A stretch of DNA of 37,650 nucleotides from Bacteroidales bacterium. Lineage in GTDB: Bacteria; Bacteroidota; Bacteroidia; Bacteroidales; WCHB1-69. How positions within the stretch are numbered: the first letter of the stretch is position 1; every line of letters begins with the position of its first letter. Location of the stretch: positions 1 through 37,650 of the forward strand of contig JAIROC010000134.1 in assembly GCA_031257735.1 (NCBI GenBank), read 5' to 3'. This document shows, piece after piece, positions 1,092-36,322 of the stretch. Position numbers and translations under genes: made by a program. Below the pieces are notes generated by a model. It did no database searches. It was not told the origin of the DNA and saw only the letters and a list, made by a program, of their open reading frames with translations.

Positions 1092-1115
1092 TAAACTTTT
1101 GAAAGCTATTCACAA
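1092..1115 (-). promoter_or_regulatory. Intergenic motif copy a (gene-sense TTGTGAATAGCTTTCAAAAGTTTA)
   Basis: Begins at the stop codon of 1110..1676 and ends 13 nt before the ATG at 1078. Shares a 24-nt stretch including the leader with copy g (1082-1105 = 30129-30152). Confidence 0.85.
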
Positions 1116-1676
1116 CAACAGTAATTTTACACCAAATCGTATGTTAGGATTAGAGTTTCTGTACTTAACTTCATAATTGGGGGAAAATGCTGCAAAAACA
1201 GAAAAACTCGAGAAATTGTATTCTACACCAATTTCGGCATTAAGACCATAAATAATCTCGTCATCACGATAATATCGTACGGATGGAGAGAATTGATCCC
1301 TATTGGTTACTTTTTGATAGCCGGTGAACGGAGCAAATGTAAGATAGGGTAGAATAGATGGAATAGGGGTATCAAAGTATTTCCTGTATCCAATAGTGGC
1401 AATGTAATACAATAGCTCGGCCCTTGTGGTCATCCCATTAAATTGCTTTCTCAGAGAAAATACAGACCCATTGATAAATAGAGCGTTTCCATTGTATAGT
1501 ATCCTCTCATACTCCATAACGCTGCCAATCCCAGTACTTCCACTAATTGAAAAACTTATGCTATTAGTGTTGTCATAGCGCTGTGCAGAAATACGACTAA
1601 TCGTTGATAATATAACCGCGATTATAAAAGTTCTTTTGTTTATGGCAAAAGATAAATATTTAAAAGCTATACACAT
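1110..1676 (-). CDS. Putative small outer-membrane beta-barrel protein (188 aa)
   Basis: Signal-like N-terminus KRTFIIAVILSTISRISAQ. Rich in Gly/Tyr/Phe/Asn with alternating strand-like segments. C-terminus ...NIRFGVKLLLL. The ATG lies inside motif copy b. Confidence 0.45.
   Translation of the reverse strand: MCIAFKYLSFAINKRTFIIAVILSTISRISAQRYDNTNSISFSISGSTGIGSVMEYERILYNGNALFINGSVFSLRKQFNGMTTRAELLYYIATIGYRKYFDTPIPSILPYLTFAPFTGYQKVTNRDQFSPSVRYYRDDEIIYGLNAEIGVEYNFSSFSVFAAFSPNYEVKYRNSNPNIRFGVKLLLL
1653..1676 (-). promoter_or_regulatory. Intergenic motif copy b (gene-sense ATGTGTATAGCTTTTAAATATTTA)
   Basis: Variant copy whose first three bases form the ATG of 1110..1676. Confidence 0.6.
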
Positions 1677-1708
1677 AAAGTTATATACATAAAAATCTAA
1701 TCATCCTA

Positions 1709-1740
1709 GCTGCTCATTAAACGTACGTTTAATGAGCAGC
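1709..1740. repeat. 32-bp perfect palindrome (left inverted-repeat candidate) with AAACGTACGT core
   Basis: GCTGCTCATTAAACGTACGTTTAATGAGCAGC equals its own reverse complement. The inner 28 bp (1711-1738) are identical to 1896-1923. Confidence 0.9.
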
Positions 1741-1863
1741 TTTTAAGCACGAGTTAACCCCTTTTTAAAGTAAAAAAAAATCATTTTTTTATAATAAAGG
1801 ATTAATCCGGAACATCCATTTTGGAGAGGCTTCGAGGCTTTTTGAAAAAAAAATATTGTAAAA

Positions 1864-1895
1864 CTTGCACTTTTTGAATAAAAAACATATTTTTG
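1864..1895 (+). promoter_or_regulatory. Bacteroides-type promoter candidate inside the palindrome-flanked segment
   Basis: TATTTTTG at 1888-1895 matches the -7 consensus TAnnTTTG exactly and abuts the right palindrome. A -33-like CTTG at 1864-1867 lies 20 nt upstream. Confidence 0.45.
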
Positions 1896-1923
1896 TGCTC
1901 ATTAAACGTACGTTTAATGAGCA
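1896..1923. repeat. 28-bp perfect palindrome (right inverted-repeat candidate), identical to 1711-1738
   Basis: TGCTCATTAAACGTACGTTTAATGAGCA, read directly from the sequence. Confidence 0.9.
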
Positions 1924-2405
1924 TGTAAAAAACAGTGACATATCGGTTGTTTGTGATACACAGCTATTAGCGTTAATAGCAGATGAAATTTGGTGATTAA
2001 CAGAAGGTTAGATAGCATTTACAAACCATGTTCTTTCTGTATATAAAATAAATCTATTGGATTTTTTTTTGTCTTTTATAGGGTGCAATTTTATTAAAAC
2101 AAAGGCATCGATATATCGTTCCTATGCCTTCTGTTCCACTTTGCTCAGAAAAAAATTACTTCAAAATGGCTTTTTTTAAAAAAACCACCAAATGGTTAAA
2201 CTATGACTAATTGTAACAAGGAGATGTTCTCACTACCGTAGGGAGTGGAATTTAGAGATGGCTTAGTCAGTTTAGCTGTGTAATAGTGTCCGCCATTAAT
2301 CCTAATAACCTAAAAAACTTAAGAAATCATCTAACAGATAATCATCTACTAGATTAACAATGCACTCTGCAGCGTAAAATCCCAAAATCCCAAATACTTC
2401 ATCAT

Positions 2406-2423
2406 ACATACTTTAGGAAAAAA
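2406..2423 (+). repeat. 18-mer ACATACTTTAGGAAAAAA, copy 1
   Basis: Exact repeat of 4267-4284. The 15-16-nt core recurs at 22199-22214 and 25248-25262. Confidence 0.85.
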
Positions 2424-2491
2424 TCACTTTAAAATTGTTTGATTAAAAAAAAGACGTAATTTTGTACGCAATAGTATGTGATTTCAAGATG

Positions 2492-2514
2492 TTATGTATA
2501 GCTTCAAATATTTA
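2492..2514 (+). promoter_or_regulatory. Intergenic motif copy n, the only plus-strand copy (TTATGTATAGCTTCAAATATTTA)
   Basis: One-base-deleted variant ending 83 nt upstream of the plus-strand phd-like/rep operon. Flanked by the direct 10-mer TAGTATGTGA at 2472-2481 and 2540-2549. Confidence 0.6.
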
Positions 2515-2597
2515 AATAAGAAATTTATTCACTAAGGAGTAGTATGTGAACGCAGGCACATCCCTTCCCCAATAGGGTTCTCCTGCTTAATGTTATC

Positions 2598-2783: not shown

Positions 2784-3907
2784 CTGACCAGAAGAAAAAG
2801 ACTCCTAAAGAGAAGAAGAAAACAAAAAATGGTGAGATCGTAAAAGAAAGAAGAGGTTTGCCGAGAAATAATCTTCCTATCCAGTTACCTGATAACCATA
2901 CATGGTTGAAACAGCCGAATTTAATCACAATGCTATCTGCTGATTTTAATACTCTACACTTAAGAGTATTAATAGCTCTAATAGAGAAACTTCAGTACTC
3001 GATAGAGCAATCAGCTAATCATGTACCATATCAACAACTGTCTATTTTTCGAGAACAGACTGTTAATAACAGAATAATAATAACGATACCAATGATGGAT
3101 TTTGGTGTCAATGCCAATAACTATCCGGAACTCAGGAAAACGCTGTTACAACTTGCTACTATTCCGATAGAATTGGACGCTAAAGATCCTGTGACAGGTA
3201 CGGCAAGTTGGGCTATCTCTGGATTGTTCAAAGCCTATATTCCCAAGGAGACCCACCGGCGGACTGTTAGCTTTGAATTTGACTATGATATAGCCAGAAC
3301 TTTGGTAGATGTAGAAAAGGGATTTACCAAATACATTAAGGAAATCGCCTTTCAAACTCAAAGTAAATATACCGTAAGGATGTATATGCTTATCAGTTCG
3401 TGGAAGGATAAAGGAGGGTTTTCTATCACGTTAGAACGGTTTAAAAAATGGCTTAGATTAGAGAACAAATATCATAAATATAAAGACTTGTATAAGAGAA
3501 TTATCAAGCCCACCTACGAAGAATTATTTGAAAAAGCGAATTGTTGGTTCGAGGTAGCGGAGATATATAGAGACGGAGAATCAGAGCCTTACAAACTAAA
3601 TTTTAAAGTAGTCAGGGCTGTTTTAACTCAACAGGAAGAAGAATTTTTGAAAAATCATAAGAACAAACTGTATGACATGATGGCTCGGCAGTTTAAAATG
3701 AGTGATAAGCATATACAGAAGGTTCTTATGCATGTAACGATATCAAATGTACACCAAGCTATAAATAAAATTGTAGATTTAGCTGAATACGTTACCCAAA
3801 ATTGGAACACTATTACCAATATACCTGAATATTGTACGAAATCAATTATCGCAAAACTTATGCCAAGTGAAGGGGTAATTGGTGAAGAAAGGGGAGATGA
3901 AGATTGA
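2780..3907 (+). CDS. Plasmid replication initiator protein (Rep, iteron-type)
   Basis: 375 aa with a basic N-terminus. The segment NLITMLSADFNTLHLRVLIALIEKL is typical of Rep_3/RepB-like initiators. Iterons follow immediately. Confidence 0.7.
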   Translation: MTDQKKKTPKEKKKTKNGEIVKERRGLPRNNLPIQLPDNHTWLKQPNLITMLSADFNTLHLRVLIALIEKLQYSIEQSANHVPYQQLSIFREQTVNNRIIITIPMMDFGVNANNYPELRKTLLQLATIPIELDAKDPVTGTASWAISGLFKAYIPKETHRRTVSFEFDYDIARTLVDVEKGFTKYIKEIAFQTQSKYTVRMYMLISSWKDKGGFSITLERFKKWLRLENKYHKYKDLYKRIIKPTYEELFEKANCWFEVAEIYRDGESEPYKLNFKVVRAVLTQQEEEFLKNHKNKLYDMMARQFKMSDKHIQKVLMHVTISNVHQAINKIVDLAEYVTQNWNTITNIPEYCTKSIIAKLMPSEGVIGEERGDED

Positions 3908-3910
3908 AAA

Positions 3911-3990
3911 ACTTCTTTTTTGTCCACAAAATGAAAAATACCCAACAAATGCTCTTTTTTTGTCTCCAAAAACTTCTTTTTTTGTCTCCA
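3911..3990 (+). repeat. Iteron cluster 1 of candidate oriV (3 copies of ~19-bp (A/T)(C/G)TTCTTTTTTTGTCTCCA)
   Basis: Copies at 3911-3928 (degenerate), 3950-3968 and 3972-3990. Confidence 0.8.
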
Positions 3991-4158
3991 GATTTACAAT
4001 TCAAGATACTGATATTCAGTAATTTATATATCCATTTACAGTACTACTACTATCACTAACTGATAAATTAAACAATCTACAACCAAAAAAAACACAACAC
4101 TTTCAACTCCAAATAACACCCCCTACCTAAAATAACACCCGCACAAACACAACACAAA

Positions 4159-4260
4159 TGTTCTTTTTTTGTCTCCGAAATGAAAAAGAGCCAACAAATG
4201 CTCTTTTTTTGTCTCCAACTAATTTTTTGCAAAAACAAAAAACTTCTTTTTTTGTCTCCA
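4159..4260 (+). repeat. Iteron cluster 2 of candidate oriV (3 copies)
   Basis: Copies at 4159-4177, 4199-4217 and 4242-4260. The larger unit gtc(c/t)c(a/c)(c/g)aaatgaaaaa..ccaacaaatgctctttttttgtctcca is shared with cluster 1. Confidence 0.8.
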
Positions 4261-4266
4261 ACTAAA

Positions 4267-4284
4267 ACATACTTTAGGAAAAAA
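4267..4284 (+). repeat. 18-mer ACATACTTTAGGAAAAAA, copy 2
   Basis: Exact repeat of 2406-2423, sitting directly after the last iteron. Confidence 0.85.
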
Positions 4285-4316: not shown

Positions 4317-4919
4317 CTATTTTAAACCATTTCTTTTGGCTCGATTGGGCTCAATCCCATTTTTTCGCAAATACTTATAAATTGTTTCTAAACTTTTAAT
4401 ATTCAAAGTCTTCTGTATATTATTTAATGTATAGCCGGATTTATATAGATTGACGCAAGTCTCAATTTTAGCTTCGTGTTCTTTATTTATACTGCCTTTT
4501 GGACGTCCAAATTTTACTCCTTTCTCCTTGGCCATTCGACGACCTGCTGAAGTTCGTTCAATTATAATATCACGTTCAAATTGAGCCAATGCTCCAAGAA
4601 TGTTTGTCATTAGCTTCCCATAATGACCTTCAGTAGATATATTATCCTGAAGGGAAATAAATGTGATACCATCCTTATTAAATTTATCAAGTAGTTCAAG
4701 TACACCCCGCAATGATCGTCCAAGTCTATCTAATTTACAAACGACTATTGTATCTCCTTTGCGTATTTTTTTGAGGCACTCGTCGAATCCTGGACGATTA
4801 AACCGGGTACCGGTATATTTATCTTTAAAAATCAGTTCGCAACCATTCTTCATCAACAACTCCTCCTGAATATCCAATTTCTGTGCTGGAGTTGAAACAC
4901 GGGCATATCCTATTCGCAT
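4317..4919 (-). CDS. Serine site-specific recombinase (resolvase/invertase family, 200 aa)
   Basis: MRIGYARVSTPAQKLDIQ contains the catalytic-Ser motif. VCKLDRLGRS and a C-terminal HTH-like tail (YKSGYTLNNIQKTLNIKSLETIYKYL) are also present. Confidence 0.85.
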   Translation of the reverse strand: MRIGYARVSTPAQKLDIQEELLMKNGCELIFKDKYTGTRFNRPGFDECLKKIRKGDTIVVCKLDRLGRSLRGVLELLDKFNKDGITFISLQDNISTEGHYGKLMTNILGALAQFERDIIIERTSAGRRMAKEKGVKFGRPKGSINKEHEAKIETCVNLYKSGYTLNNIQKTLNIKSLETIYKYLRKNGIEPNRAKRNGLK

Positions 4920-4920
4920 T

Positions 4921-5802
4921 TTACTGAAGTTGTTTTAAAATAATTTGCGCCGGAATATTCATTTTAGAAAATGCGAACAATTTTTTACCTAAGTCTTTTA
5001 AGGAGGCTCCAATATGATATACTTCATCATCAATGATAATGAACCTATCATGAGAGTGTTTGTATTGTTTTATATCAACTTTTGGGTATTGACTATTATA
5101 TTTTGATAAATCCAAATTGAACTGCGTAGTTACAGTTCCGGTGTAAATAGTTGCTTTCACTCCGGAAGTACGTTTTGACAGCATAATTAGAACACTTTCG
5201 TCAACATAGTTATCTATCAACACAATGGTTTTCTTTGCCGATTTAATGAGATTTGCAGCAAATACATAAGCGTCGAATATTTGACCATCAAAGAAGACAC
5301 CTTCTACCGGAGGTAATGAAGTCCGGACGAAGAAATCTACTTTATCTTTTAATTCGCCAATTTGTTGTTGTTGTCTTATGAATTTTGCATTAACGTTATT
5401 TTCCAGTTGATTCAGTCGTTGATTGATGGAATATCCTTTTAATAAATAATCCTTTAAAATGGAATTGGACCATCGCCTGAAATTTGTTGCATTCAAAGAA
5501 TTGACACGATAACCTACTGACAAGATAGCATCAAGATTGTAGATTTTCACCTGTTGAGTTTGCGTTTTCCCATCTATAGCACCGTGAGGAGTGGTTAGTT
5601 CCAAAATGGAACATACCTCTCGTTCATTTAATTCACCTGAGCTAAAGATATTTCCCAGATGCTTGGTTATAGCAGGTCTCTTAGTTCCAAACAGTTCAGC
5701 TATCTGTGCTTGCGTCAGCCAAACTGTTTCATTTTCTAATCGAACCTCTATCTTAACCGTTTCATCCGGTCGATACAATATAATTTCTCCAAAATTCTCC
5801 AT
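4921..5802 (-). CDS. rhuM: RhuM-family protein
   Basis: The N-terminal region IILYRPDETVKIEVRLENETVWLTQAQIAELFG...ITKHLGNIF...NLDAILSVGYRVNS..ATNFRRW matches the RhuM pattern. The C-terminal half contains HDRFIIIDDEVYHIGASLKDLGKK. One base separates it from the recombinase gene. Confidence 0.65.
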   Translation of the reverse strand: MENFGEIILYRPDETVKIEVRLENETVWLTQAQIAELFGTKRPAITKHLGNIFSSGELNEREVCSILELTTPHGAIDGKTQTQQVKIYNLDAILSVGYRVNSLNATNFRRWSNSILKDYLLKGYSINQRLNQLENNVNAKFIRQQQQIGELKDKVDFFVRTSLPPVEGVFFDGQIFDAYVFAANLIKSAKKTIVLIDNYVDESVLIMLSKRTSGVKATIYTGTVTTQFNLDLSKYNSQYPKVDIKQYKHSHDRFIIIDDEVYHIGASLKDLGKKLFAFSKMNIPAQIILKQLQ

Positions 5803-5893
5803 ATAATTACGATTTAATTTTAAAATACAAATATATAATAATCGAATAAAAAACTACCTGATTTCAGATAGTTTTATTGCACTTTAATTTTAT

Positions 5894-6861: not shown

Positions 6862-6907
6862 AATATATATTTTGTTACTTTTAAAGCAATATACAACAAC
6901 AGTAATA

Positions 6908-8129: not shown

Positions 8130-8164
8130 TTTTAATTCATTTAAGTTTTTGGCAAATATATGTT

Positions 8165-8211
8165 TTTATTTATCTATCTACAAATTTATTTATCTATTTT
8201 TTTATTTATCT
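8165..8211. repeat. Three copies of the 11-mer TTTATTTATCT (candidate centromere / parA operator)
   Basis: Copies at 8165-8175, 8185-8195 and 8201-8211, directly upstream of the parA start. Confidence 0.5.
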
Positions 8212-8261
8212 GTTTATATTTATATCTATGTGTATATTAATATACGTATACATACATACAT

Positions 8262-11050: not shown

Positions 11051-11075
11051 TAAAACGGTTGAAAGCTATACACAA
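11051..11075 (-). promoter_or_regulatory. Intergenic motif copy c (gene-sense TTGTGTATAGCTTTCAACCGTTTTA)
   Basis: Starts 4 nt after the P2 stop and lies 31 nt upstream of the P1 ATG. Confidence 0.7.
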
Positions 11076-11079
11076 AACA

Positions 11080-13126: not shown

Positions 13127-13156
13127 TAAACATTTGAAAGTTATACTATACATAAC
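13127..13156 (-). promoter_or_regulatory. Intergenic motif copy d (degenerate; GTTATGTATAGTATAACTTTCAAATGTTTA)
   Basis: Ends 10 nt before the primase-like ATG at 13116. It carries a 5-nt insertion relative to the consensus. Confidence 0.55.
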
Positions 13157-26111: not shown

Positions 26112-26135
26112 TAAACATTTGAAAACTATACACAA
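26112..26135 (-). promoter_or_regulatory. Intergenic motif copy e (TTGTGTATAGTTTTCAAATGTTTA)
   Basis: Overlaps the last codons and stop of traG (..CCV*). Ends 16 nt before the ATG at 26095. Confidence 0.85.
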
Positions 26136-28684
26136 CATCGGTTGAGATATTCACTGATAGCTGCAGGGATTGAACCTCTTTCCTTGTACAATTTCTCAAT
26201 AGCGACAATAGTTTCCTCCCTGGAATCGAAAGCAACGGAGGTTTCGGAAGAAACGCCGTTACGGAAAATCATGGATTTGTTACCCATTTTTATGAAGAAC
26301 TCTCTCCAGGTGGCGCCACGCTGTAAATTAAAGATTCTACCCTGTTCATCATTTGTGATACCCAATACACTGAGAGCAGTGACTTGATCCTTATTTTTTT
26401 CACCGTGGGGAAGAATGATTTTTGTGTCTGCATTGGCAAGAATGGATTGTTGTACTTTGGGGGAAGCATGGACAATGAAACTTACATTCTGAGCTGCAAT
26501 GATCACCTCTCCTTCTTTCTTCCGGAATGTCCGATAGAGATAACCGATAAAGTCCCCGAATTTCTTGTCGGTGAGGAAATCTAACGCTTCGTCAATAGTG
26601 AGGGACTTGGGAACACCTCTTCTTTGCTTGATCTTTTCAATGATAACGGAGAGTGTTAATATGGCGATCACAGGGAAGTATTCTTTGCCTTTGGCTTCTT
26701 CCATATCATAAGCAATCAGGGTATCATCGACTATGTTGATATTTTCTGTTCCATTGAGCAGATAGGCATACTCACCATCAGCGGTATAAGGGGTGAGCAA
26801 GAGGTCTATGTCTTCGATATTAAATAGACTTTGATGCGAGGATTTAAGGGTGTTATAGTAAGAGGGCAGATAATTCCTGTATTCTGTCAGGTTGGGAAAT
26901 AGGCTTTTCTTATTGACGTATTCATAAAACTGCTTGATACTGTTCTTTACCAATTGTTCTTCCACTGCTGTAGCCTCTTTGTCTTTCTTCCAAATATGAA
27001 TAATAATCGTGGCAATTGTGTTGATTAGATCGTCACTGCCTTCACCGTCTTCATCGGTAGTATCATAATTGTATTGGCCAAGACCGTCTTTTTGGCATAA
27101 GAACGGATTAAAGGAGAATTGTTCTTTTTGACGGCTATCAAAGTATTTTCCTTGATTAACCTGAATGAGGTGTTTATAGGAACCGCCAATGTCAATGATA
27201 ACCGTATCTTTACCCTGGATGCAATTCTGAAGGATAAGGTTGCACAAGAAGTAGGATTTGCCGGAACCGGAAGGCCCGATCACAACTTTGTTCCTATTAT
27301 CAATCAATGGGTTGGCCCACAAGTTAATCCGGATTGGGTTACCGAAACGATCATGAAAAATATGTCCGGTTTTAGGAGACAGGTATAAGCCTTCTTTATT
27401 CAGGTAACAGATAGCCTGCTTGGTTATGTTCACAAATCCTCTATAGTTCGAACGAGCGTTACCGGGAATCGAGCAGAAGAATAAATTGGCGACTTCTTCA
27501 TTTTCAATATAGGCTTTTGACTGATTGATGTTCGTGAAGCTTTGTTTTACAAGGGCGGATTTTGTGGATAGGGTATTCAAATCATGATCGTGGATGATGA
27601 CATTGACCGCAGTGTAGGAGGTCTGATAGTTATTCTCGGACAGGACTTTGCAGAAAGCGGTAATCTCATTTTGCTTTTCTGATACCGGAGTATAAAAGTT
27701 GGTTAGGAAGTTTAACGATTTTTTTTCAAAATTCAATGCGGAAACAACATCATCGGTTTTAGTGACTTCGATAACAGTATTCACAATATGGTCAAAGGGT
27801 AAGCCAAGCACCAGGGAAAACATCATACCGCAATTTTGAGGAATTGTTATTCCGGGATACAATTCTGTTTTCGTTATCTTGGGAAGTTTTAGCTTATCCA
27901 AGTATGTACCTTCTTCAATTAATGAGATGATGCCAACGAGCTTATCTCCGATCTTGAACGTACCCGTACCGGTAACAAGGCACATCGGCTGAACAACTTC
28001 TTTCGTGGCATCTGCAGTAGGATCGTTATAGGATAAATTGATGTAGTCGAATAGCGCGTTATTTAAATCGGCAGAGGTCATCCGGGTGGCTGCAATAGAT
28101 TCAATACTGTTAAAGCCGCTTTCGACCCCAAGCAACTGTATCTTGATTTCACTGATCTGTTTTCCTACATCATGAAAGGTCTTCATGAAAGGCGAGACGG
28201 ATTTTCTTAATAAAGAAGTAGATTGGGGGCTGCGACGGTCCGGGTTATTAGTGAAGGTAATGTATATGTTTGCATATATATTTAACATCTCAGTTCCTTT
28301 CAGCCCTTTCAAATTTGACATGTACAGGTAATTCTCCGAATATTCGTCCAATTCATACCGGGATGTGTAGACAAAGGTCTGTTGGTGAAAAACTGTACCG
28401 GGGGACAGAGAGCGTAAAATGTTCTCAAAACCTGTGTGAATATGCTCGGCATCGTTATCGGACAAAGTAAATGCTTCAGGAAGAAAAATTCTATATCCAA
28501 CAGTGATGTCTCCATTTTTGTTGACGATGAAACCATCCTCGATAGAATGAATGGGCATAACAGATTCCAACGATACACTTTGGTCGGTTAGTTTTACCGT
28601 ATCTTTTCTACATGACACGACTATCAGGAATATGAGTAGGCATATCAGAAACGAGACCAGGAATATGAGTAGGCTTAATTGCAT
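26126..28684 (-). CDS. traG: TraG conjugative ATPase (VirB4 homologue in Bacteroides nomenclature)
   Basis: Walker A IGPSGSGKSYF and Walker B-like SLTIDEALDF. The usual family N-terminus begins at MPIHSIEDGFIV, so an alternative start at 28558 is possible. Confidence 0.85.
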   Translation of the reverse strand: MQLSLLIFLVSFLICLLIFLIVVSCRKDTVKLTDQSVSLESVMPIHSIEDGFIVNKNGDITVGYRIFLPEAFTLSDNDAEHIHTGFENILRSLSPGTVFHQQTFVYTSRYELDEYSENYLYMSNLKGLKGTEMLNIYANIYITFTNNPDRRSPQSTSLLRKSVSPFMKTFHDVGKQISEIKIQLLGVESGFNSIESIAATRMTSADLNNALFDYINLSYNDPTADATKEVVQPMCLVTGTGTFKIGDKLVGIISLIEEGTYLDKLKLPKITKTELYPGITIPQNCGMMFSLVLGLPFDHIVNTVIEVTKTDDVVSALNFEKKSLNFLTNFYTPVSEKQNEITAFCKVLSENNYQTSYTAVNVIIHDHDLNTLSTKSALVKQSFTNINQSKAYIENEEVANLFFCSIPGNARSNYRGFVNITKQAICYLNKEGLYLSPKTGHIFHDRFGNPIRINLWANPLIDNRNKVVIGPSGSGKSYFLCNLILQNCIQGKDTVIIDIGGSYKHLIQVNQGKYFDSRQKEQFSFNPFLCQKDGLGQYNYDTTDEDGEGSDDLINTIATIIIHIWKKDKEATAVEEQLVKNSIKQFYEYVNKKSLFPNLTEYRNYLPSYYNTLKSSHQSLFNIEDIDLLLTPYTADGEYAYLLNGTENINIVDDTLIAYDMEEAKGKEYFPVIAILTLSVIIEKIKQRRGVPKSLTIDEALDFLTDKKFGDFIGYLYRTFRKKEGEVIIAAQNVSFIVHASPKVQQSILANADTKIILPHGEKNKDQVTALSVLGITNDEQGRIFNLQRGATWREFFIKMGNKSMIFRNGVSSETSVAFDSREETIVAIEKLYKERGSIPAAISEYLNRCCV

Positions 28685-29243: not shown

Positions 29244-29248
29244 CTTTT

Positions 29249-29272
29249 TAAACAATTGAAAACTATACACAA
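29249..29272 (-). promoter_or_regulatory. Intergenic motif copy f (TTGTGTATAGTTTTCAATTGTTTA)
   Basis: Lies between the traE stop (29277) and the ATG at 29243. Confidence 0.8.
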
Positions 29273-29276
29273 CCGG

Positions 29277-29567
29277 CTAAACAACAAACCCGCCGATAAT
29301 ACTTAATACAAGAGCAACAAACCATGCAATCACGTAGGTATTCGCATTCGGTTTTCCAGAGACGACCTGCCAAATTACAAAGATTAACCCAAGCAATAGT
29401 ACTGTTCCAATGATGTACCAAGCCATTTCGGACATAGTCTCTGCACCCTCTTTTACAGGGTCTTTGATGGAGGAGAAGTCTGTAATCTTGAGTTTCTGCG
29501 ATGGGGCAGAGAGGGAGAATAATAATGCTGCAGTACATAATGCAGGCTTCCTAATTGAATGTTTCAT
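29277..29567 (-). CDS. traE: TraE (DUF4134, VirB2-like pilin) with signal peptide
   Basis: MKHSIRKPALCTAALLFSLSAPSQ is followed by two TM segments: WYIIGTVLLLGLIFVIWQVVSGKPNANTYVIAWFVALVLSIIGGFVV. Confidence 0.65.
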   Translation of the reverse strand: MKHSIRKPALCTAALLFSLSAPSQKLKITDFSSIKDPVKEGAETMSEMAWYIIGTVLLLGLIFVIWQVVSGKPNANTYVIAWFVALVLSIIGGFVV

Positions 29568-29917
29568 ACTGAAATTTTTTTTAGATTATTAAAATTAATT
29601 TTATCAAATCGGACATAAATTTTATCCACTTCATTCGACGGAAGAGAAGGACTCGGGTTTTTGGGGCTAATCTGGTCGAAATAGATTGCATACTCCGCAA
29701 GAACTTCAATGTCTTCATCGTCTATAGTCTCTTTCGCATAGATAATCTGAAACATAGGTTTAATTACCAGTGGAGGAGAACCGTCTTTCTCTTTCGGGTA
29801 TGTTCTTTTCCAAAGTACTGCCGGCTTTTTGAACAGTTGAAAGCCATGCGCAACAACGAAGTATATAACTGCGACAGTACAATACAACGCAATAACTGCT
29901 ATTATACCATATTCCAT
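29564..29917 (-). CDS. Small membrane-anchored protein (117 aa from MEYGII...)
   Basis: One N-terminal TM segment. ATGA overlap with traE. The track start at 29950 would overlap the upstream gene by 49 nt. Confidence 0.4.
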   Translation of the reverse strand: MEYGIIAVIALYCTVAVIYFVVAHGFQLFKKPAVLWKRTYPKEKDGSPPLVIKPMFQIIYAKETIDDEDIEVLAEYAIYFDQISPKNPSPSLPSNEVDKIYVRFDKINFNNLKKISV

Positions 29918-30126
29918 ACTGCTATGTATACTGCTAAAGCAATAAACCAACTGATGAGCGCCTTTTTTGCACCATCGGAATTGTTCGCTAATTTTCTAAG
30001 GACGGCGAGGGCGGCACATATTAGCCCTATTGCGCCGATCGTCATTCCTATATCTGTATAGGAAGCGCTTAATCCGTTAAGAGAGGAAGCGCCATTAATT
30101 TGTGAACTGATAAAATATGCAACCAT
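29902..30126 (-). CDS. TraE/VirB2-like small two-TM protein, paralogue 1 (74 aa)
   Basis: GMTIGAIGLICAALAVLRKLANNSDGAKKALISWFIALAVYIAVW. Confidence 0.5.
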   Translation of the reverse strand: MVAYFISSQINGASSLNGLSASYTDIGMTIGAIGLICAALAVLRKLANNSDGAKKALISWFIALAVYIAVWNMV

Positions 30127-30138: not shown

Positions 30139-30163
30139 TAAACTTTTGAAAGGCTATACACAA
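30139..30163 (-). promoter_or_regulatory. Intergenic motif copy g (TTGTGTATAGCCTTTCAAAAGTTTA)
   Basis: Fills the gap between the stop at 30167 and the ATG at 30126. Confidence 0.8.
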
Positions 30164-30166
30164 CTA

Positions 30167-31510
30167 TTACATCTGAAATAACTGATTGACTCCTTTCAAA
30201 ACAGCATCTTTTACATTTCCTTTCTCGGGGACTTTTTGCTGTTCTTTTTCCATTTTTACCGTAGCCTTTACAGCCTGAGGATCTTCAATGCCAAGAAGCC
30301 TTTTTACACCCTCCTTTTTCAAATCCGGCATTTCCAATTCTCCGATTTCTTTTCTTACTGCTTCAGAAGGCTTATATCCGCTTTGTGCGATTTCATTGAC
30401 GGTTTTATAATCTTCTGTCTTTATGGCTTTGATTAACCGTTCTTCCAACATACTCATTTCCCTCTTTTCAAGCGCCGGCTCCATGGCTTTTTGCTGTAAG
30501 TCGGCCTTTACTTCCTTTTTTTCCTGAAGTATTTCTGGGGTGGTCGGGCTGTTCTCTACCTTTTTTTTATCCGGTATTTCTATACCAGGAGAGAATCCGG
30601 ATTGTAATTTTGAACGTGATATTAACTTATCCAAATGGACTTCCGGACGAAGTTTTGCATTTCTAAATTCGATACCTTTTTTATCCGGGGTGAGGGCCAG
30701 CTCTGCTGTGAAGCCTGTCTTAGTCATGTCATCGTACAATAACACCGGAGGGGTTTGCTTGCCGTTGGCCAACAATGTTTTTTCTATGTCTGTTAGGTAG
30801 TGTAGGCCAATCTGTTGCGGAATATTTATTTCCTTTGCTCCTTTGACAATGACGGCATTCACCTCTTTGTCGATTTGAAGATAGATATCATTTCCCTTGT
30901 TACTCTTAATCAGAATGAGTTCTCCTTTGAGGAGCGCTTCTTTTTGTTGCTTTAGTAATGTTTTTCCCAAGAGTGTATCCGGAATGATAAGCTCTTCTCG
31001 TTTCTGTATGGCAGAGATTTTCCCGTTTTTCCCACGATAGAACTTAGTCGGGGTTCCATTGACATCCATGAGCTGCGAATATTCTCCCGGTTCTAACTTG
31101 CTCCCGGATCCATCGAGAAGAAAACCATTCTTGTTTGCGTAGTCGTACAACTCTTTACCTGTATAACAGACCTTATGCTCGTGATCAATAATCGTAAAGC
31201 CATCTTTACCCTCTTTTAGGGAATCCCATTTGTGAACTGTGATATTGACACCTTTCAGTTCTTCCCGATACTTGTCAAAATCCGAACTGGCAGCATTCCG
31301 GTCAAACAGCAGGGAAAGCCGTTCCATCGAAATGTCGGCCAACTTATCGTCTACCTTGGCTAACCCCCTGATCTGATCAAATGACAGCTTGGACTCTTCT
31401 CCGTCTTTAGACAATTTAAAATGTCCGTTACAATATTGGGAATTATACCCCAATGATCCTGCTACGGCGCTAAATTGACCAATGTTTTTAAAATGATAGT
31501 CTTTGTACAT
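30167..31510 (-). CDS. DUF3945/DUF4099-like conjugative-element protein
   Basis: The start was taken at MYKDYHFKNIGQ (or MFMYKDY at 31516); the track N-terminus MLYCVVYSFQ is the translated motif. GKTLLKQQKEALLKGELILIKSNKGNDIYLQIDKEVN resembles DUF3945/4099 repeats. Confidence 0.45.
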   Translation of the reverse strand: MYKDYHFKNIGQFSAVAGSLGYNSQYCNGHFKLSKDGEESKLSFDQIRGLAKVDDKLADISMERLSLLFDRNAASSDFDKYREELKGVNITVHKWDSLKEGKDGFTIIDHEHKVCYTGKELYDYANKNGFLLDGSGSKLEPGEYSQLMDVNGTPTKFYRGKNGKISAIQKREELIIPDTLLGKTLLKQQKEALLKGELILIKSNKGNDIYLQIDKEVNAVIVKGAKEINIPQQIGLHYLTDIEKTLLANGKQTPPVLLYDDMTKTGFTAELALTPDKKGIEFRNAKLRPEVHLDKLISRSKLQSGFSPGIEIPDKKKVENSPTTPEILQEKKEVKADLQQKAMEPALEKREMSMLEERLIKAIKTEDYKTVNEIAQSGYKPSEAVRKEIGELEMPDLKKEGVKRLLGIEDPQAVKATVKMEKEQQKVPEKGNVKDAVLKGVNQLFQM

Positions 31511-31552
31511 AAACATTTGAAAGCTATACACAACACAATACAACAACTACTT
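31475..31552 (-). repeat. 78-bp perfect direct repeat, copy 1 (motif + leader + first 12 codons)
   Basis: Identical base for base to 36245-36322. Confidence 0.95.
31510..31533 (-). promoter_or_regulatory. Intergenic motif copy h (consensus TTGTGTATAGCTTTCAAATGTTTA)
   Basis: Lies between the ssb stop (31547) and the start codon. The ATG of the downstream gene overlaps the motif's 3' end. Confidence 0.9.
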
Positions 31553-31861
31553 GCTCGTTGATGGGCATTCCGATACAGAAGTCGGGAAGATCAACCGATC
31601 CACATAAGTGGAAGTGTTATAGTACTTCTTACCGTCTTTTTCGTTCACTTTCGTGCTGAACTGCCCAACGATTTCTACATACTTACCTTTTGTCAGGTAC
31701 TTTCTTTGTTCATCGCTGAGCTTTCCAATGCAATCAAAGAAGTTCGTTTGATCCTTGGGAAGGTTTTCAGCGACAGTAAATGTGGTCATACCATTTTGAA
31801 AGCTATTCACAATAACTTTAGCATCTGCGGTCAATCGACCGGAAAAAATAATTGTTGCCAT
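31547..31861 (-). CDS. ssb: Single-stranded DNA-binding protein-like OB-fold protein (104 aa, no acidic tail)
   Basis: IIFSGRLTADAKV...NGMTTFTVAEN...FFDCIGKLSDEQRKYLTKGKYVEIVGQFSTKVNEKDGKKYYNTSTYVDRLIF aligns by eye with the bacterial SSB core. Confidence 0.7.
   Translation of the reverse strand: MATIIFSGRLTADAKVIVNSFQNGMTTFTVAENLPKDQTNFFDCIGKLSDEQRKYLTKGKYVEIVGQFSTKVNEKDGKKYYNTSTYVDRLIFPTSVSECPSTSK
31792..31812 (-). promoter_or_regulatory. Partial motif copy i inside the ssb coding sequence (TTGTGAATAGCTTTCAAAATG)
   Basis: A 17-nt exact match to copy a (TTGAAAGCTATTCACAA on the plus strand). It encodes VNSFQNG. Confidence 0.6.
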
Positions 31862-31882
31862 AATTAATATTATTGATTTTTA

Positions 31883-31906
31883 TAAACATTTGAAAGCTAT
31901 ACACAA
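31883..31906 (-). promoter_or_regulatory. Intergenic motif copy i' (consensus)
   Basis: Lies between the stop at 31917 and the ssb ATG at 31861. The upstream extension GTAGTTGTATTGTGT is shared with copies h and m. Confidence 0.9.
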
Positions 31907-31916
31907 CACAATACAA

Positions 31917-33743
31917 CTACTCCTTAGGCTTTATATAGAGGTAATTGACCGAACGTTCATACGCTAAAACATAGTCTAAGCCACCGATGCTTGTTCTCTC
32001 ACCGTCTTCGTCTAAGCCCCAAATGATCTCTTCGGTAACGTCTTTGAGCGCCTCCAGCGTGACATTGCAATCGACCGTGATGAACTTCCATTCGTCTGAT
32101 CCGTCGGCTTTGAAATACAGGTGGATGACAGGGGAGTACCGGTCGGGAAGCGTTCTTCTCTCCGTTATGCAACAGGACAGGCTATACAACTGAATATCGT
32201 CGCTGACGGGAAGATCGACAGAGATTCTTCCGACTTCATCCGCCCAGGTATTACCATCATTTTGTGACTGCGAATAAAAGTCGCCAAAAGTGCGGTGGAA
32301 GACGGCTTTGACTTCCCCTTTCAGGCGCTGATTGCTTTTGTTTACCAACCGCACCTCGGTCTCAAAAGGAGTGTCGTATCGCTTCATGAAGATTTCATTG
32401 TCGGCAGAATATTCCCTTATTAAATTAAAATTTCGGCATCGGGGAACATCGTAGCTCTCCAGTACCGTGACTATGAAATCTTCTTCACTACACGTTGAAC
32501 CCAATCTCGGACAAATCCATTCTTCCTCACCTTTGGCTTGAAATAGAGGTTTAACGGTATAGGTTCCGGGAGCGCAGTTGATATAAAAGGGAATTAACCA
32601 TGAGGTAAAGTATCCATCACCTCTTAATTCATTAATATTATAAGGCTGGGATTGTTCAACTAAAGTCTCCCCATTGTACAGCGCCATTCTGAACCTTCCT
32701 TCCCATTTTTCACTACCGGTGTTTGTGGCGTAATTACCAAAATAACCGGCTTCACCCTTGATATATGTTCTTCCGTAATTCTGATAAAAGGGATCGATTC
32801 TTAATAGAGAGGTACGGCTGTTTCCAAGGGTGATAGGATCTGTTTTTCCAAAGGTAGACCAATAGACGACATCGAGCTGAGTATCTTCAGGAAGCAGATG
32901 GGGGGTACCGGTTTTCTTGTGCAAATTCAGAGAATAGATATACTCGTACTCTGCACGCCAATGATGAATCTTACTTACATAATAGATATACTCGTCGCCG
33001 TCGATGGTGATGTAAAATATAACGTCTTCGTAATCGGCCATATTCGTCGGAAGAGTAATAATACTTAATTTTTGAAGATTAGAATCATCTAAAGTATAAT
33101 CGAACGTATCCGAAAGGGAAGTAATCTCTCCGGTTTTAACGATATCTCCTGTTGTTATATCAAGTTCGCCAGTCGTATGGATACCTTCTATCTCTATCTT
33201 GGTCACCCGGCCTTCATATTGATAATCGTTTTTATGGATGTAAAATGAAACTAAGGATAGACCATGCTTCATGGTGATGTCGGCAGTAACCCTGTCTTTG
33301 GATGCAGTTGCTTTTACACCATAAAGATAGTCAATCTGTTCACTTGCATCAACAGGGAGGATGGCATCATGAATACTTTCGGAATAAGGGTAATAGCTGT
33401 ACAGGAATACAGGATCGTCTTTCAACTCGATATCTTTATGCACCCAAACACTTCCGTCGAACGACGCGGGAAAATTCAAATTGCCGGAATTTCCGTCATA
33501 AGGCTGGTCGACACGGCCGCCGGTGGCATAAAGGCCGATTTTATCTGTTGTACCAAATCGCTCGATGATCGCCCCCCGACTATTGCCGTAGTGCATACGC
33601 TCCAATGATGGAGAGATTTTTAACGAATAGGTTATAGGTTGAGGTGCTGGATCATCACCGGAGGAACAACCTACTAAAAATAATACCAATGCTAAAAAAT
33701 AATTCTTTCTTTTAAATATTTGAAAGCTATTCACGTTATTCAT
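31917..33743 (-). CDS. Fimbrillin-like (Mfa/FimA superfamily, type V pilus-related) lipoprotein, 608 aa
   Basis: Lipobox LVLFLVGCSS. The segments VFLYSYYPY...ILPVDASEQIDYLYG...MKHGLSLVSFYI...ITTGELDITTGD are typical of the fimbrillin family. Confidence 0.6.
   Translation of the reverse strand: MNNVNSFQIFKRKNYFLALVLFLVGCSSGDDPAPQPITYSLKISPSLERMHYGNSRGAIIERFGTTDKIGLYATGGRVDQPYDGNSGNLNFPASFDGSVWVHKDIELKDDPVFLYSYYPYSESIHDAILPVDASEQIDYLYGVKATASKDRVTADITMKHGLSLVSFYIHKNDYQYEGRVTKIEIEGIHTTGELDITTGDIVKTGEITSLSDTFDYTLDDSNLQKLSIITLPTNMADYEDVIFYITIDGDEYIYYVSKIHHWRAEYEYIYSLNLHKKTGTPHLLPEDTQLDVVYWSTFGKTDPITLGNSRTSLLRIDPFYQNYGRTYIKGEAGYFGNYATNTGSEKWEGRFRMALYNGETLVEQSQPYNINELRGDGYFTSWLIPFYINCAPGTYTVKPLFQAKGEEEWICPRLGSTCSEEDFIVTVLESYDVPRCRNFNLIREYSADNEIFMKRYDTPFETEVRLVNKSNQRLKGEVKAVFHRTFGDFYSQSQNDGNTWADEVGRISVDLPVSDDIQLYSLSCCITERRTLPDRYSPVIHLYFKADGSDEWKFITVDCNVTLEALKDVTEEIIWGLDEDGERTSIGGLDYVLAYERSVNYLYIKPKE
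33713..33736 (-). promoter_or_regulatory. Motif copy j inside the first codons of 31917..33743 (ACGTGAATAGCTTTCAAATATTTA)
   Basis: Encodes VNSFQIF directly after the ATG at 33743. Confidence 0.65.
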
Positions 33744-33779
33744 ACTTGTTTTAATTTAATGTTTTCAATACAACAAAGA

Positions 33780-33803
33780 TAAACATTTGAAAACTATACA
33801 CAA
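33780..33803 (-). promoter_or_regulatory. Intergenic motif copy k (TTGTGTATAGTTTTCAAATGTTTA)
   Basis: Lies 11 nt after the stop at 33815 and is followed by TATCTTTG, an exact TAnnTTTG. It ends 36 nt upstream of the ATG at 33743. Confidence 0.85.
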
Positions 33804-33814
33804 CAACGCCAGCA

Positions 33815-34567
33815 TTAATTACGTGAATAAGTTATAATATATTTTGTGCCATTAATTATGAGTTCTTCGCTTATAATGGGGAATTGTTTTGCATTAATTA
33901 TTATAACATTACCTACAGTTAATGTATATGTTTTCCATTCATATTCAATGCTTTCTCCTTCACTATAACCACCCATATAATCTATATAAGTCTCATCATA
34001 ATAATCATCGTCCCATTCTGTGGTGGTGTTTGCATTAAATGTCTTAGTTTCCTCGGTAGTTGTTGTTGAACGATAATACCATTCCTCTGTCCAGAATTCA
34101 TACTTCTTATTTCCAACAACCTTTAATGTTACAGGACTAACCGAGGTTGTTAGAGTGCGTTTTATTTTTGTGAAAAACATATCACGATGGCGATCATTAT
34201 AAGGATGTGCATAATTAGTGACATCCTGAATATCAATCGTTATTACGCTCCGAAACTTGGCAGTGAATTTCATGTCTTCACCAGGAACGTCGAAGGTGTA
34301 TGAACTTTGATTCTTCTTTTTATTTTTATCGTCTTCAAAACTGACAAGCTCATAACCATCATTGGGTGTAGCGGTTACAGTACACTCCTGGCCGAAATCA
34401 TAGAGTCCTCCTCCGGTGACGGTTCCTGCTGCGGTAGATGTAACACGGGTGGACACACCGTCTACAATAATTTCACAATCAACAAGCACTTTCGCTTGTT
34501 CTTCTTTTGAACAAGCAACAATAGTAGCAGCTATGGCTACATAGAAAAAACACTTTAACATTTTCAT
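33815..34567 (-). CDS. Lipoprotein with one Listeria-Bacteroides-type repeat (250 aa)
   Basis: The signal peptide and lipobox AATIVACSK are followed by GTVTGGGLYDFGQECTVTATPNDGYELVSFEDD...YTFDV...FTAKFR. Confidence 0.6.
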   Translation of the reverse strand: MKMLKCFFYVAIAATIVACSKEEQAKVLVDCEIIVDGVSTRVTSTAAGTVTGGGLYDFGQECTVTATPNDGYELVSFEDDKNKKKNQSSYTFDVPGEDMKFTAKFRSVITIDIQDVTNYAHPYNDRHRDMFFTKIKRTLTTSVSPVTLKVVGNKKYEFWTEEWYYRSTTTTEETKTFNANTTTEWDDDYYDETYIDYMGGYSEGESIEYEWKTYTLTVGNVIIINAKQFPIISEELIINGTKYIITYSRN

Positions 34568-34591
34568 GATTTTGAATTTTTAAATTAGTTT

Positions 34592-35401
34592 TTAGATAGA
34601 TATTTGAGAGCTATACGCAACATGCTTGGAGGTAGATTCCGCAATTCCCCAGCCAGCTTTACCTTTAATCAACTCGACGGTAACTAAAGTTGCAGAATTA
34701 TTTATCGTCGTGATTTTATCACCGGAAAGTAACTTTTTAATGGATTCCGGAGATTGTTTGCTTAAATCAATGTCTCCGACGTTCAGCGGTTCCGTCTTGC
34801 CTGTGGATTTATCCAAGATGCGGTAATTGTCATATCCGGAAGAGGTAGAGACATCAGCGATTAAAGACTTGCCCGTGGAAGAAAAGAGTTCTTCATCTCT
34901 ATAGACTTGGATAGAACTTTCGCTTTTATTTATAGGCCCTTGAATTTCCTTTTCCCATACTGTTTTACCCGTTTCATTACCAACAACACTGATAGTACCA
35001 CCAGTATAATCATTCACATAAGAGTCACCGGATTCAAGCATTATTTCTGCTTTCTCGATTGCTTCGTCTCTTGTCAAAGAAAAACCTTTGCTATTGGAAT
35101 CTGTGGCGTCATTAAAAAACACATCGTAAGTTTCATCCATCATATCTGCTTTGAGCATTACCTTCTCTGATTCGGTTAATTTGGGTAATTTGACCTCGTG
35201 GCTGTTCTCCATTTGGTAGGCTTTAAAATCATCGACAAGAAGTTTTAAATCATAGAGAAACTCATCGCTGCATCCATTTTTCTTATAAATAGACAATGCT
35301 GATTCTAATATCTCGGCGGAGCAGCTGTCGGTACCTTGAAATACAATTGCAGGTATTTCATTCATAAGACACTTGTTTAATAATCTTCTTTGATCTTTCA
35401 T
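34592..35401 (-). CDS. Hypothetical protein (269 aa, no signal peptide)
   Basis: ORF only. Its C-terminal codons are motif copy l. Confidence 0.45.
   Translation of the reverse strand: MKDQRRLLNKCLMNEIPAIVFQGTDSCSAEILESALSIYKKNGCSDEFLYDLKLLVDDFKAYQMENSHEVKLPKLTESEKVMLKADMMDETYDVFFNDATDSNSKGFSLTRDEAIEKAEIMLESGDSYVNDYTGGTISVVGNETGKTVWEKEIQGPINKSESSIQVYRDEELFSSTGKSLIADVSTSSGYDNYRILDKSTGKTEPLNVGDIDLSKQSPESIKKLLSGDKITTINNSATLVTVELIKGKAGWGIAESTSKHVAYSSQISI
34597..34620 (-). promoter_or_regulatory. Degenerate motif copy l (TTGCGTATAGCTCTCAAATATCTA)
   Basis: Overlaps the last 8 codons of 34592..35401. Lies 29 nt upstream of the ATG at 34567. Confidence 0.55.
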
Positions 35402-35407
35402 AATAAG

Positions 35408-36280
35408 CTAATTGAGTTTAATGTTATAATTGTAAATGTCGCCATTATAAAAACCGCCAAGACGCCAACTTCTAATTTGTATATTCCCGACTTTAATATG
35501 GGTACTCGCTTTCCCTTTATTCTGAATAAGTACGGTATGGAGTGATTCTTCTGATGGCACATTGCTTGATTTGGGATATTTATAGGTGTACAATTCATCG
35601 TCAATGGTAAAATTGATACTGATGCTGTCTTCTTCTTCCCGTGATGATGGCAGCATCAAAAGAGTAATAGGGGTGCCCAATTCGGTGAAATGAATATCAC
35701 ATTCGATATCGATATCATATGCACCGGAGGAAGAACGAAGTTCTCCTGTTATCAGATTAAATTCGCCAGCGAATCCGATATTTTGAATCCCTATGTTTGA
35801 CAGGTGGCCAACGCCATCATAACCATTTTTTTTTATAATCAGGGTATTTAAGGAAAAAATGTTTTGTAAGGGGAGAATAGCAGTAGATTCATTCGCTGTA
35901 ACGATACATTTTCCCCATAATACTGGAGTTTGGTCTGTTATATCGATAGGCAGTATATTGTCGTTTATAATAGGAACATAAGGGTAGTAACCGATAACCT
36001 CCTGGGGAGACAGTACTTTAAGGTCTTCAGTGAAAGTCCATGTTTCCCCCAAGGTACACTTATAGTTCGTATCATCGAATAATATACCGATTTCTTTTAT
36101 GGAGCTATCTCTGCTGCTCAGTAGAGGAACAACGGTTAAAATAACAGGAAGTTCTTCTTCACTATTATCACTATCCCCATCGCAGGACGACAGGCCAAAG
36201 ACTGCTATACAGATAATTATGTATAATAGTGACCTTTTTATAATTTGACCAATGTTTTTAAAATGATAGTCTTTGTACAT
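35408..36280 (-). CDS. Fimbrillin-like lipoprotein with a borrowed N-terminal leader
   Basis: MYKDYHFKNIGQ (identical to 30167..31510) is followed by IIKRSLLYIIICIAVFGLSSC (lipobox). VIGYYPYVP...ILPIDITDQTPVLWG...NLITGEL is fimbrillin-like. Confidence 0.6.
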   Translation of the reverse strand: MYKDYHFKNIGQIIKRSLLYIIICIAVFGLSSCDGDSDNSEEELPVILTVVPLLSSRDSSIKEIGILFDDTNYKCTLGETWTFTEDLKVLSPQEVIGYYPYVPIINDNILPIDITDQTPVLWGKCIVTANESTAILPLQNIFSLNTLIIKKNGYDGVGHLSNIGIQNIGFAGEFNLITGELRSSSGAYDIDIECDIHFTELGTPITLLMLPSSREEEDSISINFTIDDELYTYKYPKSSNVPSEESLHTVLIQNKGKASTHIKVGNIQIRSWRLGGFYNGDIYNYNIKLN

Positions 36281-36322
36281 AAACATTTGAAAGCTATACA
36301 CAACACAATACAACAACTACTT
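36245..36322 (-). repeat. 78-bp perfect direct repeat, copy 2
   Basis: Identical to 31475-31552; the offset is 4770 bp. Confidence 0.95.
36280..36303 (-). promoter_or_regulatory. Intergenic motif copy m (consensus)
   Basis: Part of the 78-bp repeat, between the stop at 36317 and the ATG at 36280. Confidence 0.9.

Follow-up and report, generated by a model that had tools for sequence, protein, structure and literature searches.

We analysed a 37,650-nt stretch of DNA from a Bacteroidales bacterium (GenBank assembly GCA_031257735.1, contig JAIROC010000134.1; hereafter, the window), which is a conjugative plasmid in which a short motif recurs at gene junctions. This motif almost certainly derives from a CRISPR repeat, as judged from its sequence. 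It corresponds to positions 1-25 of a 47-nt type II-C repeat (GTTGTGTATAGCTTTCAAATGTTTA, continuing with TCTTTG...), and, as predicted from complementarity, this part of the repeat is retained in the mature CRISPR RNA (crRNA) and pairs with the anti-repeat of the trans-activating CRISPR RNA (tracrRNA). The original prediction, which had noted the motif, did not recognize it as a described element; it is instead the 5' part of a CRISPR repeat. We put at about even the chance that the plasmid's sense transcripts carry mimics of the crRNA handle that pair with the host's tracrRNA and load Cas9, and so serve as an RNA anti-CRISPR, or sponge, with many sites.

Number, orientation and placement of the copies

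The 24-mer TTGTGTATAGCTTTCAAATGTTTA occurs nine times at up to 3 mismatches, each time on the minus strand (9/9), where shuffled sequences lead one to expect 0 occurrences. With a profile made from these nine good copies, we found 16 copies at E<0.05; the next match has E=1.5. All 15 sites of the original prediction, which had claimed at least 15, are among them, and 29830-29855(-) is added. When all 15 sites were read, those not matched by the 24-mer turned out to be degenerate or indel variants of the same motif, with indels in copies 2492, 13127 and 30139. The motif had been put at ~24 nt, but the conserved block measures 26 nt: the 24-mer is repeat positions 2-25, and alignment of the copies adds a conserved G1 and one T preceding it. 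The edges of this block are sharp, with flanks at ~0 bits. Repeat positions 1-25 are exact in three plasmid copies and at most 3 nt off in six more.

Fifteen copies are on the minus strand and one is on the plus strand. All 16 have the sense of the local genes, with 0 antisense (P=1.5e-5 under random strand), in agreement with the earlier claim that copies are co-directional with genes and that only one is plus-sense. The motif is also non-palindromic, as had been stated. Coding sequence makes up 90.5% of the plasmid in a gene map built by hand, and 13/16 copies fall within the 9.5% that is non-coding (P=2e-11). The description of copies as filling gaps between stop and start codons is therefore largely accurate, but three copies lie within open reading frames (ORFs), namely 31792 (in ssb), 33713 (in the gene of a 608-aa lipoprotein) and 29830 (in ORF 29564-29950). 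Similarly, most copies had been said to end before the next ATG. Most are indeed near starts, ending -8 to +35 nt from a start codon, but two genes have their start ATG at the 3' end of a motif copy, and ORF 1110-1676 can plausibly start only at a copy's first triplet.

The parent CRISPR repeat and its tracrRNA

An exact scan for a 21-mer in one genome per species gave four loci, of which three are arrays with a period of 76-77 nt and the fourth is a solitary repeat. The motif-bearing arrays were found in two Mediterranea metagenome-assembled genomes (MAGs) and in Bacteroides sp. 224. Their 47-nt repeat is composed of GTTGTGTATAGCTTTCAAATGTTTATCTTTG and 16 variable nt, and their spacers are 29-30 nt. 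The arrays adjoin cas2, cas1 and a cas9 encoding 1,491 aa, with no csn2 or cas4, and this gene content indicates a type II-C layout. Related arrays contain 4 to 46 repeats.

The tracrRNA lies upstream of cas9 on the opposite strand, and has a consensus Bacteroidota -7 box, the anti-repeat (AUAACAUUUGAAGCUAUUCACAAU), the sequence AAGGAUUAUUCCG and a terminator made of a G+C hairpin and then a U-run. The anti-repeat is complementary to the repeat when this is read as GTTGTG..., which fixes the crRNA sense of the repeat, and it pairs with positions ~1-26. Among six related loci whose Cas9 proteins are 70-100% identical, repeat positions 1-31 are almost invariant and the tracrRNAs are nearly identical, so that one handle sequence would fit the whole clade. 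Across the six sister systems (L001-L003 and L022-L024), the repeat's final 16 nt differ freely. At the ends of the L001 and L003 arrays that are far from the cas genes, there is a partial repeat consisting of the 3' half only, with the TATCTTTG box kept. A division into a constrained handle and promoter versus a free tail fits both the variation of the repeat and these partial repeats. Two further observations concern individual loci. In L022 (JGI 3300042616), an insertion sequence (IS) element with a DDE_3 transposase is inserted between cas9 and cas1 (4815-5830). In Mediterranea sp. Cd354_bin2 (JAIRNG010000107.1, 5640-5686), a solitary full 47-nt repeat with one mismatch (T3->C) contains a TAG at which a short ORF ends; chromosomal genes of PBP2/RodA type lie ~1.5 kb upstream of this repeat. 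It may be a host-encoded standalone repeat (a crRNA-like regulator) or the edge of another element.

The plasmid and such a CRISPR system occur together. Exact-protein look-ups located the plasmid's Rep and TraG proteins only in Logan assemblies of run SRR14710907, and a protein-homology search also lists the plasmid contig as a JGI metagenome record. The closest Cas9 homologue, which is 89% identical to the Cas9 of L002, is from run SRR14710907 too. The Cas9 contig of this run (6 kb) contains cas9-cas1-cas2, the start of the tracrRNA and the last repeat. It shares 99.9% identity with the locus of Mediterranea Cd354_bin2, where the array has 46 repeats.

Predicted pairing of the copies with tracrRNA

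In RNAduplex predictions, the canonical repeat pairs with tracrRNA at -23.3 kcal/mol. Six plasmid copies reach about -23 kcal/mol and ten are at or below -17 kcal/mol, against a background of -6 +/- 2.6 kcal/mol. The predicted duplexes thus provide what an RNA of the small CRISPR-associated RNA (scaRNA) type requires, namely a repeat-like element able to pair with tracrRNA. The conserved block of the plasmid copies ends where the anti-repeat ends.

The variation among copies can also be compared to this duplex. At position 7, where the native duplex has a U.U mismatch, some copies have an A, which pairs; the C12->U variant retains a G.U pair. The bulged U15 and also G11 are invariant. Other variation is mostly in the distal stem (positions 19-21), and the guide-proximal stem and the bulge are kept. 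This pattern appears to fit guide-RNA modules, although we regard it as supportive rather than decisive.

Origin and spread of the copies

The transfer region has its nearest relatives in four other runs; these have TraG proteins that are 54-58% identical, and keep the gene order. Their genes overlap or are at most 6 nt apart, whereas the TraG junction in the window is 30 nt, with the stop codon inside a motif copy. We found neither this motif nor any other dispersed repeat in the nearest related tra regions. Since these relatives have the same gene order with abutting genes and no motif, the copies on the plasmid are insertions.

Some copies form subfamilies with common short flanks: 31510, 36280 and 31883 in one case, and 1092, 30139 and a decayed copy at 6873 in another. 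In addition, an 85-nt unit is present at 31471-31555 and 36241-36325 with 98% identity between the sites, and provides both a DUF3945 gene and the gene of an Mfa-like lipoprotein with an identical start codon and first 12 codons (MYKDYHFKNIGQ). The common flanks and the 85-nt unit suggest that duplication or gene conversion spread the copies over the plasmid. The 5' part of this unit, TTGTTGTATTG, lies upstream in three copies and resembles positions 29-39 of the full repeat that the plasmid also carries (33758-33804, see below). The resemblance might reflect either a fusion of two repeats or chance similarity between T/G-rich sequences.

The original prediction had proposed a motif search of plasmids and phages. 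A blastn search with the 47-nt repeat gave only chance-level matches in PLSDB and phage records, and PLSDB yielded no near-identical plasmid. A degenerate motif scan gave eight single, unrelated matches in metagenome contigs, about the chance expectation, and 0 matches in IMG/VR.

A possible RNA sponge

We propose the following mechanism for the copies. The plasmid's mRNAs would present many tracrRNA-binding sites. Host tracrRNA would pair with these handles, Cas9 would bind and RNase III would cut, as happens with pre-crRNA. The guides of the resulting pseudo-crRNAs would be plasmid sequence, whose only match in DNA is adjoined by the repeat itself, as in an array, and not by a protospacer-adjacent motif (PAM). 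These guides would therefore be harmless to the plasmid. The predicted outcome is that tracrRNA and Cas9 are titrated away from genuine crRNAs. As a secondary effect, pairing near start codons may modulate or cleave the plasmid's own messages.

Action at the RNA level through pairing with tracrRNA, if the sponge and a regulatory version are taken together, is the best-supported mechanism, and we judge its chances to be even or somewhat better. The original prediction had listed an mRNA processing or translation-initiation signal among its options; this option comes nearest to what we propose, with the difference that the pairing partner would be tracrRNA, possibly with RNase III or Cas9. For the narrower claim that anti-CRISPR activity is the primary benefit of the copies, the chances seem even at best, and perhaps marginally lower.

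It is important to consider several points that weigh against the sponge. A pure sponge needs neither proximity to start codons nor the supply of a start codon, as occurs in the 85-nt unit. When we compared 119 spacers from six related arrays to the plasmid and its relatives, we found 0 protospacers. The plasmid is linked to its host only in that the two co-occur in one metagenomic run. Predicted duplexes of several degenerate copies are at -12 to -16 kcal/mol, and these copies may be inert. Because the copies are related by descent, the pattern of variation among them is weak evidence of selection. Finally, we found no second mobile element with the same arrangement in the collections scanned (PLSDB, phage records, metagenome contigs and IMG/VR).

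Alternative explanations

Many copies overlap or abut start codons, and so a regulatory or processing role on plasmid genes is a serious rival to the sponge, or an added function. In its strongest form, host tracrRNA would regulate the plasmid: the copies would be target sites for a small RNA (sRNA) at translation-initiation regions, the pairing would, through RNase III or Cas9, repress or process the messages for surface lipoproteins, fimbrillins, ssb and pilin-like proteins, and gene regulation would be primary. The evidence of pairing with tracrRNA is the same for this idea as for the sponge. Furthermore, copies overlap or closely precede starts, the ATG of two genes is in the paired region, and the layout is like that of classical sRNA target sites. 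There is also a parallel in Francisella, where Cas9, tracrRNA and scaRNA repress lipoprotein genes. Regulation as the primary role would, however, with no obvious selective gain, make expression of a conjugative plasmid hinge on a host system that many recipients lack, and it fits poorly with the copies in ORFs and the copy that is 82 nt upstream of phd. We therefore consider it unlikely.

No less unlikely is that the copies are dispersed promoters, either derived from a promoter embedded in the repeat or forming a new class with TAGCTTTC as its -7 box, which would give transcripts with short leaders or none. Bacteroidota type II-C repeats do carry promoters (PMC10309648), and the parent repeat contains TTG (positions 2-4)-N19-TATCTTTG (positions 24-31). 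The copies are co-directional with genes and end close to start codons, consensus promoters are few in the 27-kb block of co-directional genes, and the 85-nt unit puts the motif and a start codon before two unrelated genes. Yet by the Bacteroidota criterion (TAnnTTTG, with TTG 17-21 nt upstream), a full match is present only at 33774-33803, within the full repeat at 33758-33804, whereas copy 13127 keeps the -7 box and copy 1653 is one nt off. The TTTG of the consensus -7 box is gone from 12-13 of the 16 copies. As for a new class, which the original prediction had suggested as a dedicated one, the case is weak: TAGCTTTC deviates from the consensus by lacking its G, no -33 element is conserved at 17-21 nt upstream of it, and the real box, TATCTTTG, has been lost from most copies. 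A promoter would also explain only some 6 of the 25 positions that are conserved. Positions 1-8 are conserved with no promoter reason to be, and of the two positions that are 'n' in the box, G11 is invariant and C12 changes only to T. Moreover, three copies are in ORFs, translation seems to run through copy 1653, and the plus-strand copy is 3' of a consensus promoter. In related operons the genes abut, and these junctions are empty.

The copies might instead be non-functional relics, that is, scars of recombination with arrays or of aberrant Cas1-Cas2 activity that spread by duplication or gene conversion. The degeneracy of several copies and the subfamilies with common flanks are in line with this idea. 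It does not explain why 16/16 copies are in sense orientation, why the boundary at the end of the anti-repeat is sharp, why the same truncation to positions 1-25 is repeated in place of random breakpoints, or why six copies are perfect or near-perfect. Cas1-Cas2 integration is expected to leave full repeats flanking spacers of ~30 nt, and these are not seen. We regard this explanation as improbable, somewhat more so than regulation or promoters.

Least probable among the functional proposals, to the point of being hardly credible, is that the copies form scaRNA-like or mini-array guides, with the sequences upstream of them directing the host's Cas9 either against competing elements or to cas9 or tracrRNA, which it would repress. 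Viral scaRNAs and crRNA-like RNAs (crlRNAs) exist (bioRxiv 10.64898/2026.06.01.729453, 10.1101/2024.10.29.618823). In the plasmid, the full repeat at 33758-33804 and copy 33713 amount to a promoter-bearing repeat, a spacer of 20-21 nt and a handle, and the same 17-19 nt are upstream of three copies. However, the 3' ends of the pseudo-spacers have no match of at least 9 nt to the regions upstream of cas9 or flanking the arrays in L002, L015 and L016 (the true host's locus being covered in part); 13-nt seeds at up to 1 mismatch match only themselves or at chance level; and most of the supposed guides are 3' ends of plasmid genes. The array-like layout is confined to this pair, and whole genes separate all other copies.

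Two further candidates lack support, and a third was rejected as a general explanation. A hook for recombination, as proposed in the original prediction, is unsupported, since there are no antisense copies and none in related plasmids. The same holds for a scattered fragment of a miniature inverted-repeat transposable element (MITE) or IS end, which had been named as the alternative; the motif is also absent from public plasmid and phage collections, and its only other multi-copy occurrences are CRISPR arrays. The motif contains an open frame (VYSFQMF), used in ssb and one lipoprotein, but an N-terminal coding motif is not consistent with the fact that the frame relative to downstream genes varies and that stops often intervene.

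Comparison with known systems

In C. jejuni, as Jiao and colleagues are said to have found in 2021, repeat-like segments of mRNAs pair with tracrRNA and load into Cas9 as noncanonical crRNAs. Those are fortuitous, weak matches in host mRNAs, whereas the plasmid's copies are near-perfect, multi-copy, biased in orientation and on a mobile element.

Solitary repeat units are known to act as RNA anti-CRISPRs, or Racrs (Camara-Wilpert et al. 2023, PMC10651486). As with Racrs, a mobile element here holds a host CRISPR repeat outside of arrays and away from cas genes, it matches a co-occurring host system (the cas9 locus in SRR14710907), and the proposed sequestration of Cas components is by mimicry. 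The copy at 33758-33804 is a true full-length solitary repeat. However, a Racr is one full repeat with a promoter of its own, from which it is expressed as a small RNA, while 15 of the plasmid's 16 copies are cut to the 25-nt handle, and only the copy at 33758-33804 is complete with a consensus promoter. The 16 copies are also embedded in mRNAs at the gene junctions of a conjugative plasmid, and besides a Cas protein they would directly target an RNA, tracrRNA. A text search of the Racr paper found 'type II' once and tracrRNA nowhere.

Mimics of single-guide RNA (sgRNA) and scaRNA encoded by phages act against Cas9 (bioRxiv 10.64898/2026.06.01.729453; rAcrIIA1, 10.64898/2026.06.03.729762). They are likewise an RNA-based subversion of Cas9, and the viral scaRNAs are repeat-like and pair with host tracrRNA. 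These mimics are single compact RNAs that either include a tracr part by fusion or have a guide that matches the promoter of cas9, and are borne by phages beside anti-CRISPR (Acr) genes. By contrast, the plasmid's copies are numerous and have neither a tracr part nor a guide match.

A third comparison is to type II-C arrays with promoters embedded in their repeats (Zhang et al. 2013, Hoikkala et al. 2021, both as cited in PMC10309648). The parent repeat has such a promoter, two to three plasmid copies keep it, and most retain only the crRNA handle. The mechanism that we propose follows the logic of RNA anti-CRISPRs and phage mimics. The arrangement would thus be CRISPR-repeat mimicry by a mobile element, which is known in kind; what appears to be new is the bare handle, in many copies, embedded in mRNAs on a plasmid.

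Genomic context of individual copies

The copy at 1092..1116 (-), GTTGTGAATAGCTTTCAAAAGTTTA, was found by the profile and has a predicted duplex with tracrRNA of -23.4 kcal/mol. The upstream ORF ends at a TGA within it, and the ATG of a 691-aa InlB-repeat lipoprotein gene is 12 nt downstream. The degenerate copy at 1653..1677 (-) keeps a near-consensus -7 box (TATCTTTT), and begins with an ATG, the one triplet at which ORF 1110-1676 can plausibly start. The sole plus-strand copy (2491..2514), with a 1-nt deletion, is 82 nt upstream of phd. A consensus promoter (TTG-N17-TAATTTTG; 2435..2464 (+)) precedes it and phd/rep; the copy begins 27 nt 3' of this promoter, and so lies in the 5' untranslated region (UTR) of phd-rep. 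The decayed 17th copy (6873..6897 (-)) is 17/25 identical and shares its upstream flank with copy 1092.

A copy at 11051..11076 (-) is upstream of a 37-codon ORF. The copy at 13127..13156 (-) has a 5-nt insertion yet keeps the -7 box intact (TATATTTG, a perfect match); a Toprim/primase-like gene has its ATG 4 nt further on, and the copy is probably a working promoter. The TraG/VirB4 gene ends at a TAG inside the copy at 26112..26136 (-), and the next ATG is 15 nt downstream. The copy at 29249..29273 (-) separates duplicated small membrane-protein genes; the gene upstream of it (29277-29567) has a weak, sub-threshold match to Pfam DUF4134 (TraE/VirB2-like). Inside ORF 29564-29950 is the degenerate copy at 29830..29855 (-), the one absent from the original list. 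A copy with a 1-nt insertion (30139..30164 (-)) separates the DUF3945 gene from the first of the DUF4134 genes.

Perfect copies are located at 31510..31534, 31883..31907 and 36280..36304, all on the minus strand. In the first, ATGs at repeat positions 19-21 and 25-27 start the DUF3945 gene; the second is 20 nt upstream of the ssb ATG; and the third provides the start codon of a 302-aa Mfa-like lipoprotein. The copy at 31792..31813 (-) is in the coding sequence of ssb at codons ~17-23, and encodes IVNSFQNG. The full-length 47-nt solitary repeat at 33758..33804 (-) is identical to the L022 repeat at 43/47 positions and has the consensus promoter TTG-N19-TATCTTTG. It is followed after 20-21 nt by the degenerate copy at 33713..33737 (-), which occupies codons 4-11 of the 608-aa Mfa-like lipoprotein gene, in the signal-peptide region. 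The degenerate copy at 34597..34621 (-) is read through by the upstream ORF, and the next ATG is 28 nt downstream.

Other features of the plasmid

The window closes into a circle and so represents the plasmid in circularly permuted form: an ORF from 1078(-) crosses its ends with a length of 691 codons. This is the gene of the 691-aa InlB B-repeat lipoprotein, which spans 37198-37564 and the junction to 1078, and contains internal 154-nt repeats corresponding to domain repeats. The plasmid is of a Bacteroidales conjugative type and has no cas genes. It encodes Rep3, Phd, a resolvase and ParA; MobC, a relaxase and a coupling protein; a methylase-helicase; CTnDOT-type TraG, J, M and N as well as small DUF4134 proteins; and the product of a DUF3945 gene, Ssb, and Mfa-like and InlB-repeat lipoproteins. 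A search of the window matched 0 Rfam families.

Directly 3' of the Rep3 gene (3907-4274) is a cluster of 31-36-nt direct repeats (CTCTTTTTTTGTCTCC..., AAAAACTTCTTTTTT...) that look like the iterons of a replication origin. The parA-mobC gap contains a consensus Bacteroidota promoter for parA (8153-8183(-)), which is overlapped by two 36-nt AT-rich tandem repeats (8156-8227), and this region (8153-8227) is a candidate parS or oriT. Upstream of traG, a tandem duplication of ~300 bp (28790-29390, segments 75-90% identical) made paralogous genes for small membrane proteins of pilin/VirB2-like type. Among these, only 29277-29567 has the weak DUF4134 match, and motif copy 29249 lies between the duplicates.

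Implications

Our overall hypothesis, whose chances we place a little short of even, is that the plasmid has seeded its operon junctions with ~16 sense-oriented handles of the host Cas9's crRNA. Ordinary mRNAs would jointly form a sponge that needs no dedicated gene or promoter and works clade-wide, and the plasmid may also sense or exploit host tracrRNA to tune its surface and transfer genes.

If this is true, it would be an economical form of counter-defence, unlike the single phage-encoded sgRNA-like and scaRNA-like mimics that were recently reported. Its target would be tracrRNA, the RNA on which every type II system relies, and this target would be reached via ordinary mRNAs. Natural RNA decoys of this kind could serve to damp Cas9 activity. 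There is also a caution for annotation, in that dispersed promoter-like motifs on mobile elements need to be compared to the CRISPR repeats of their hosts. A mobile element whose gene junctions contain partial repeats in sense orientation offers a searchable signature, which could reveal anti-CRISPR strategies and link plasmids to their hosts in metagenomes.

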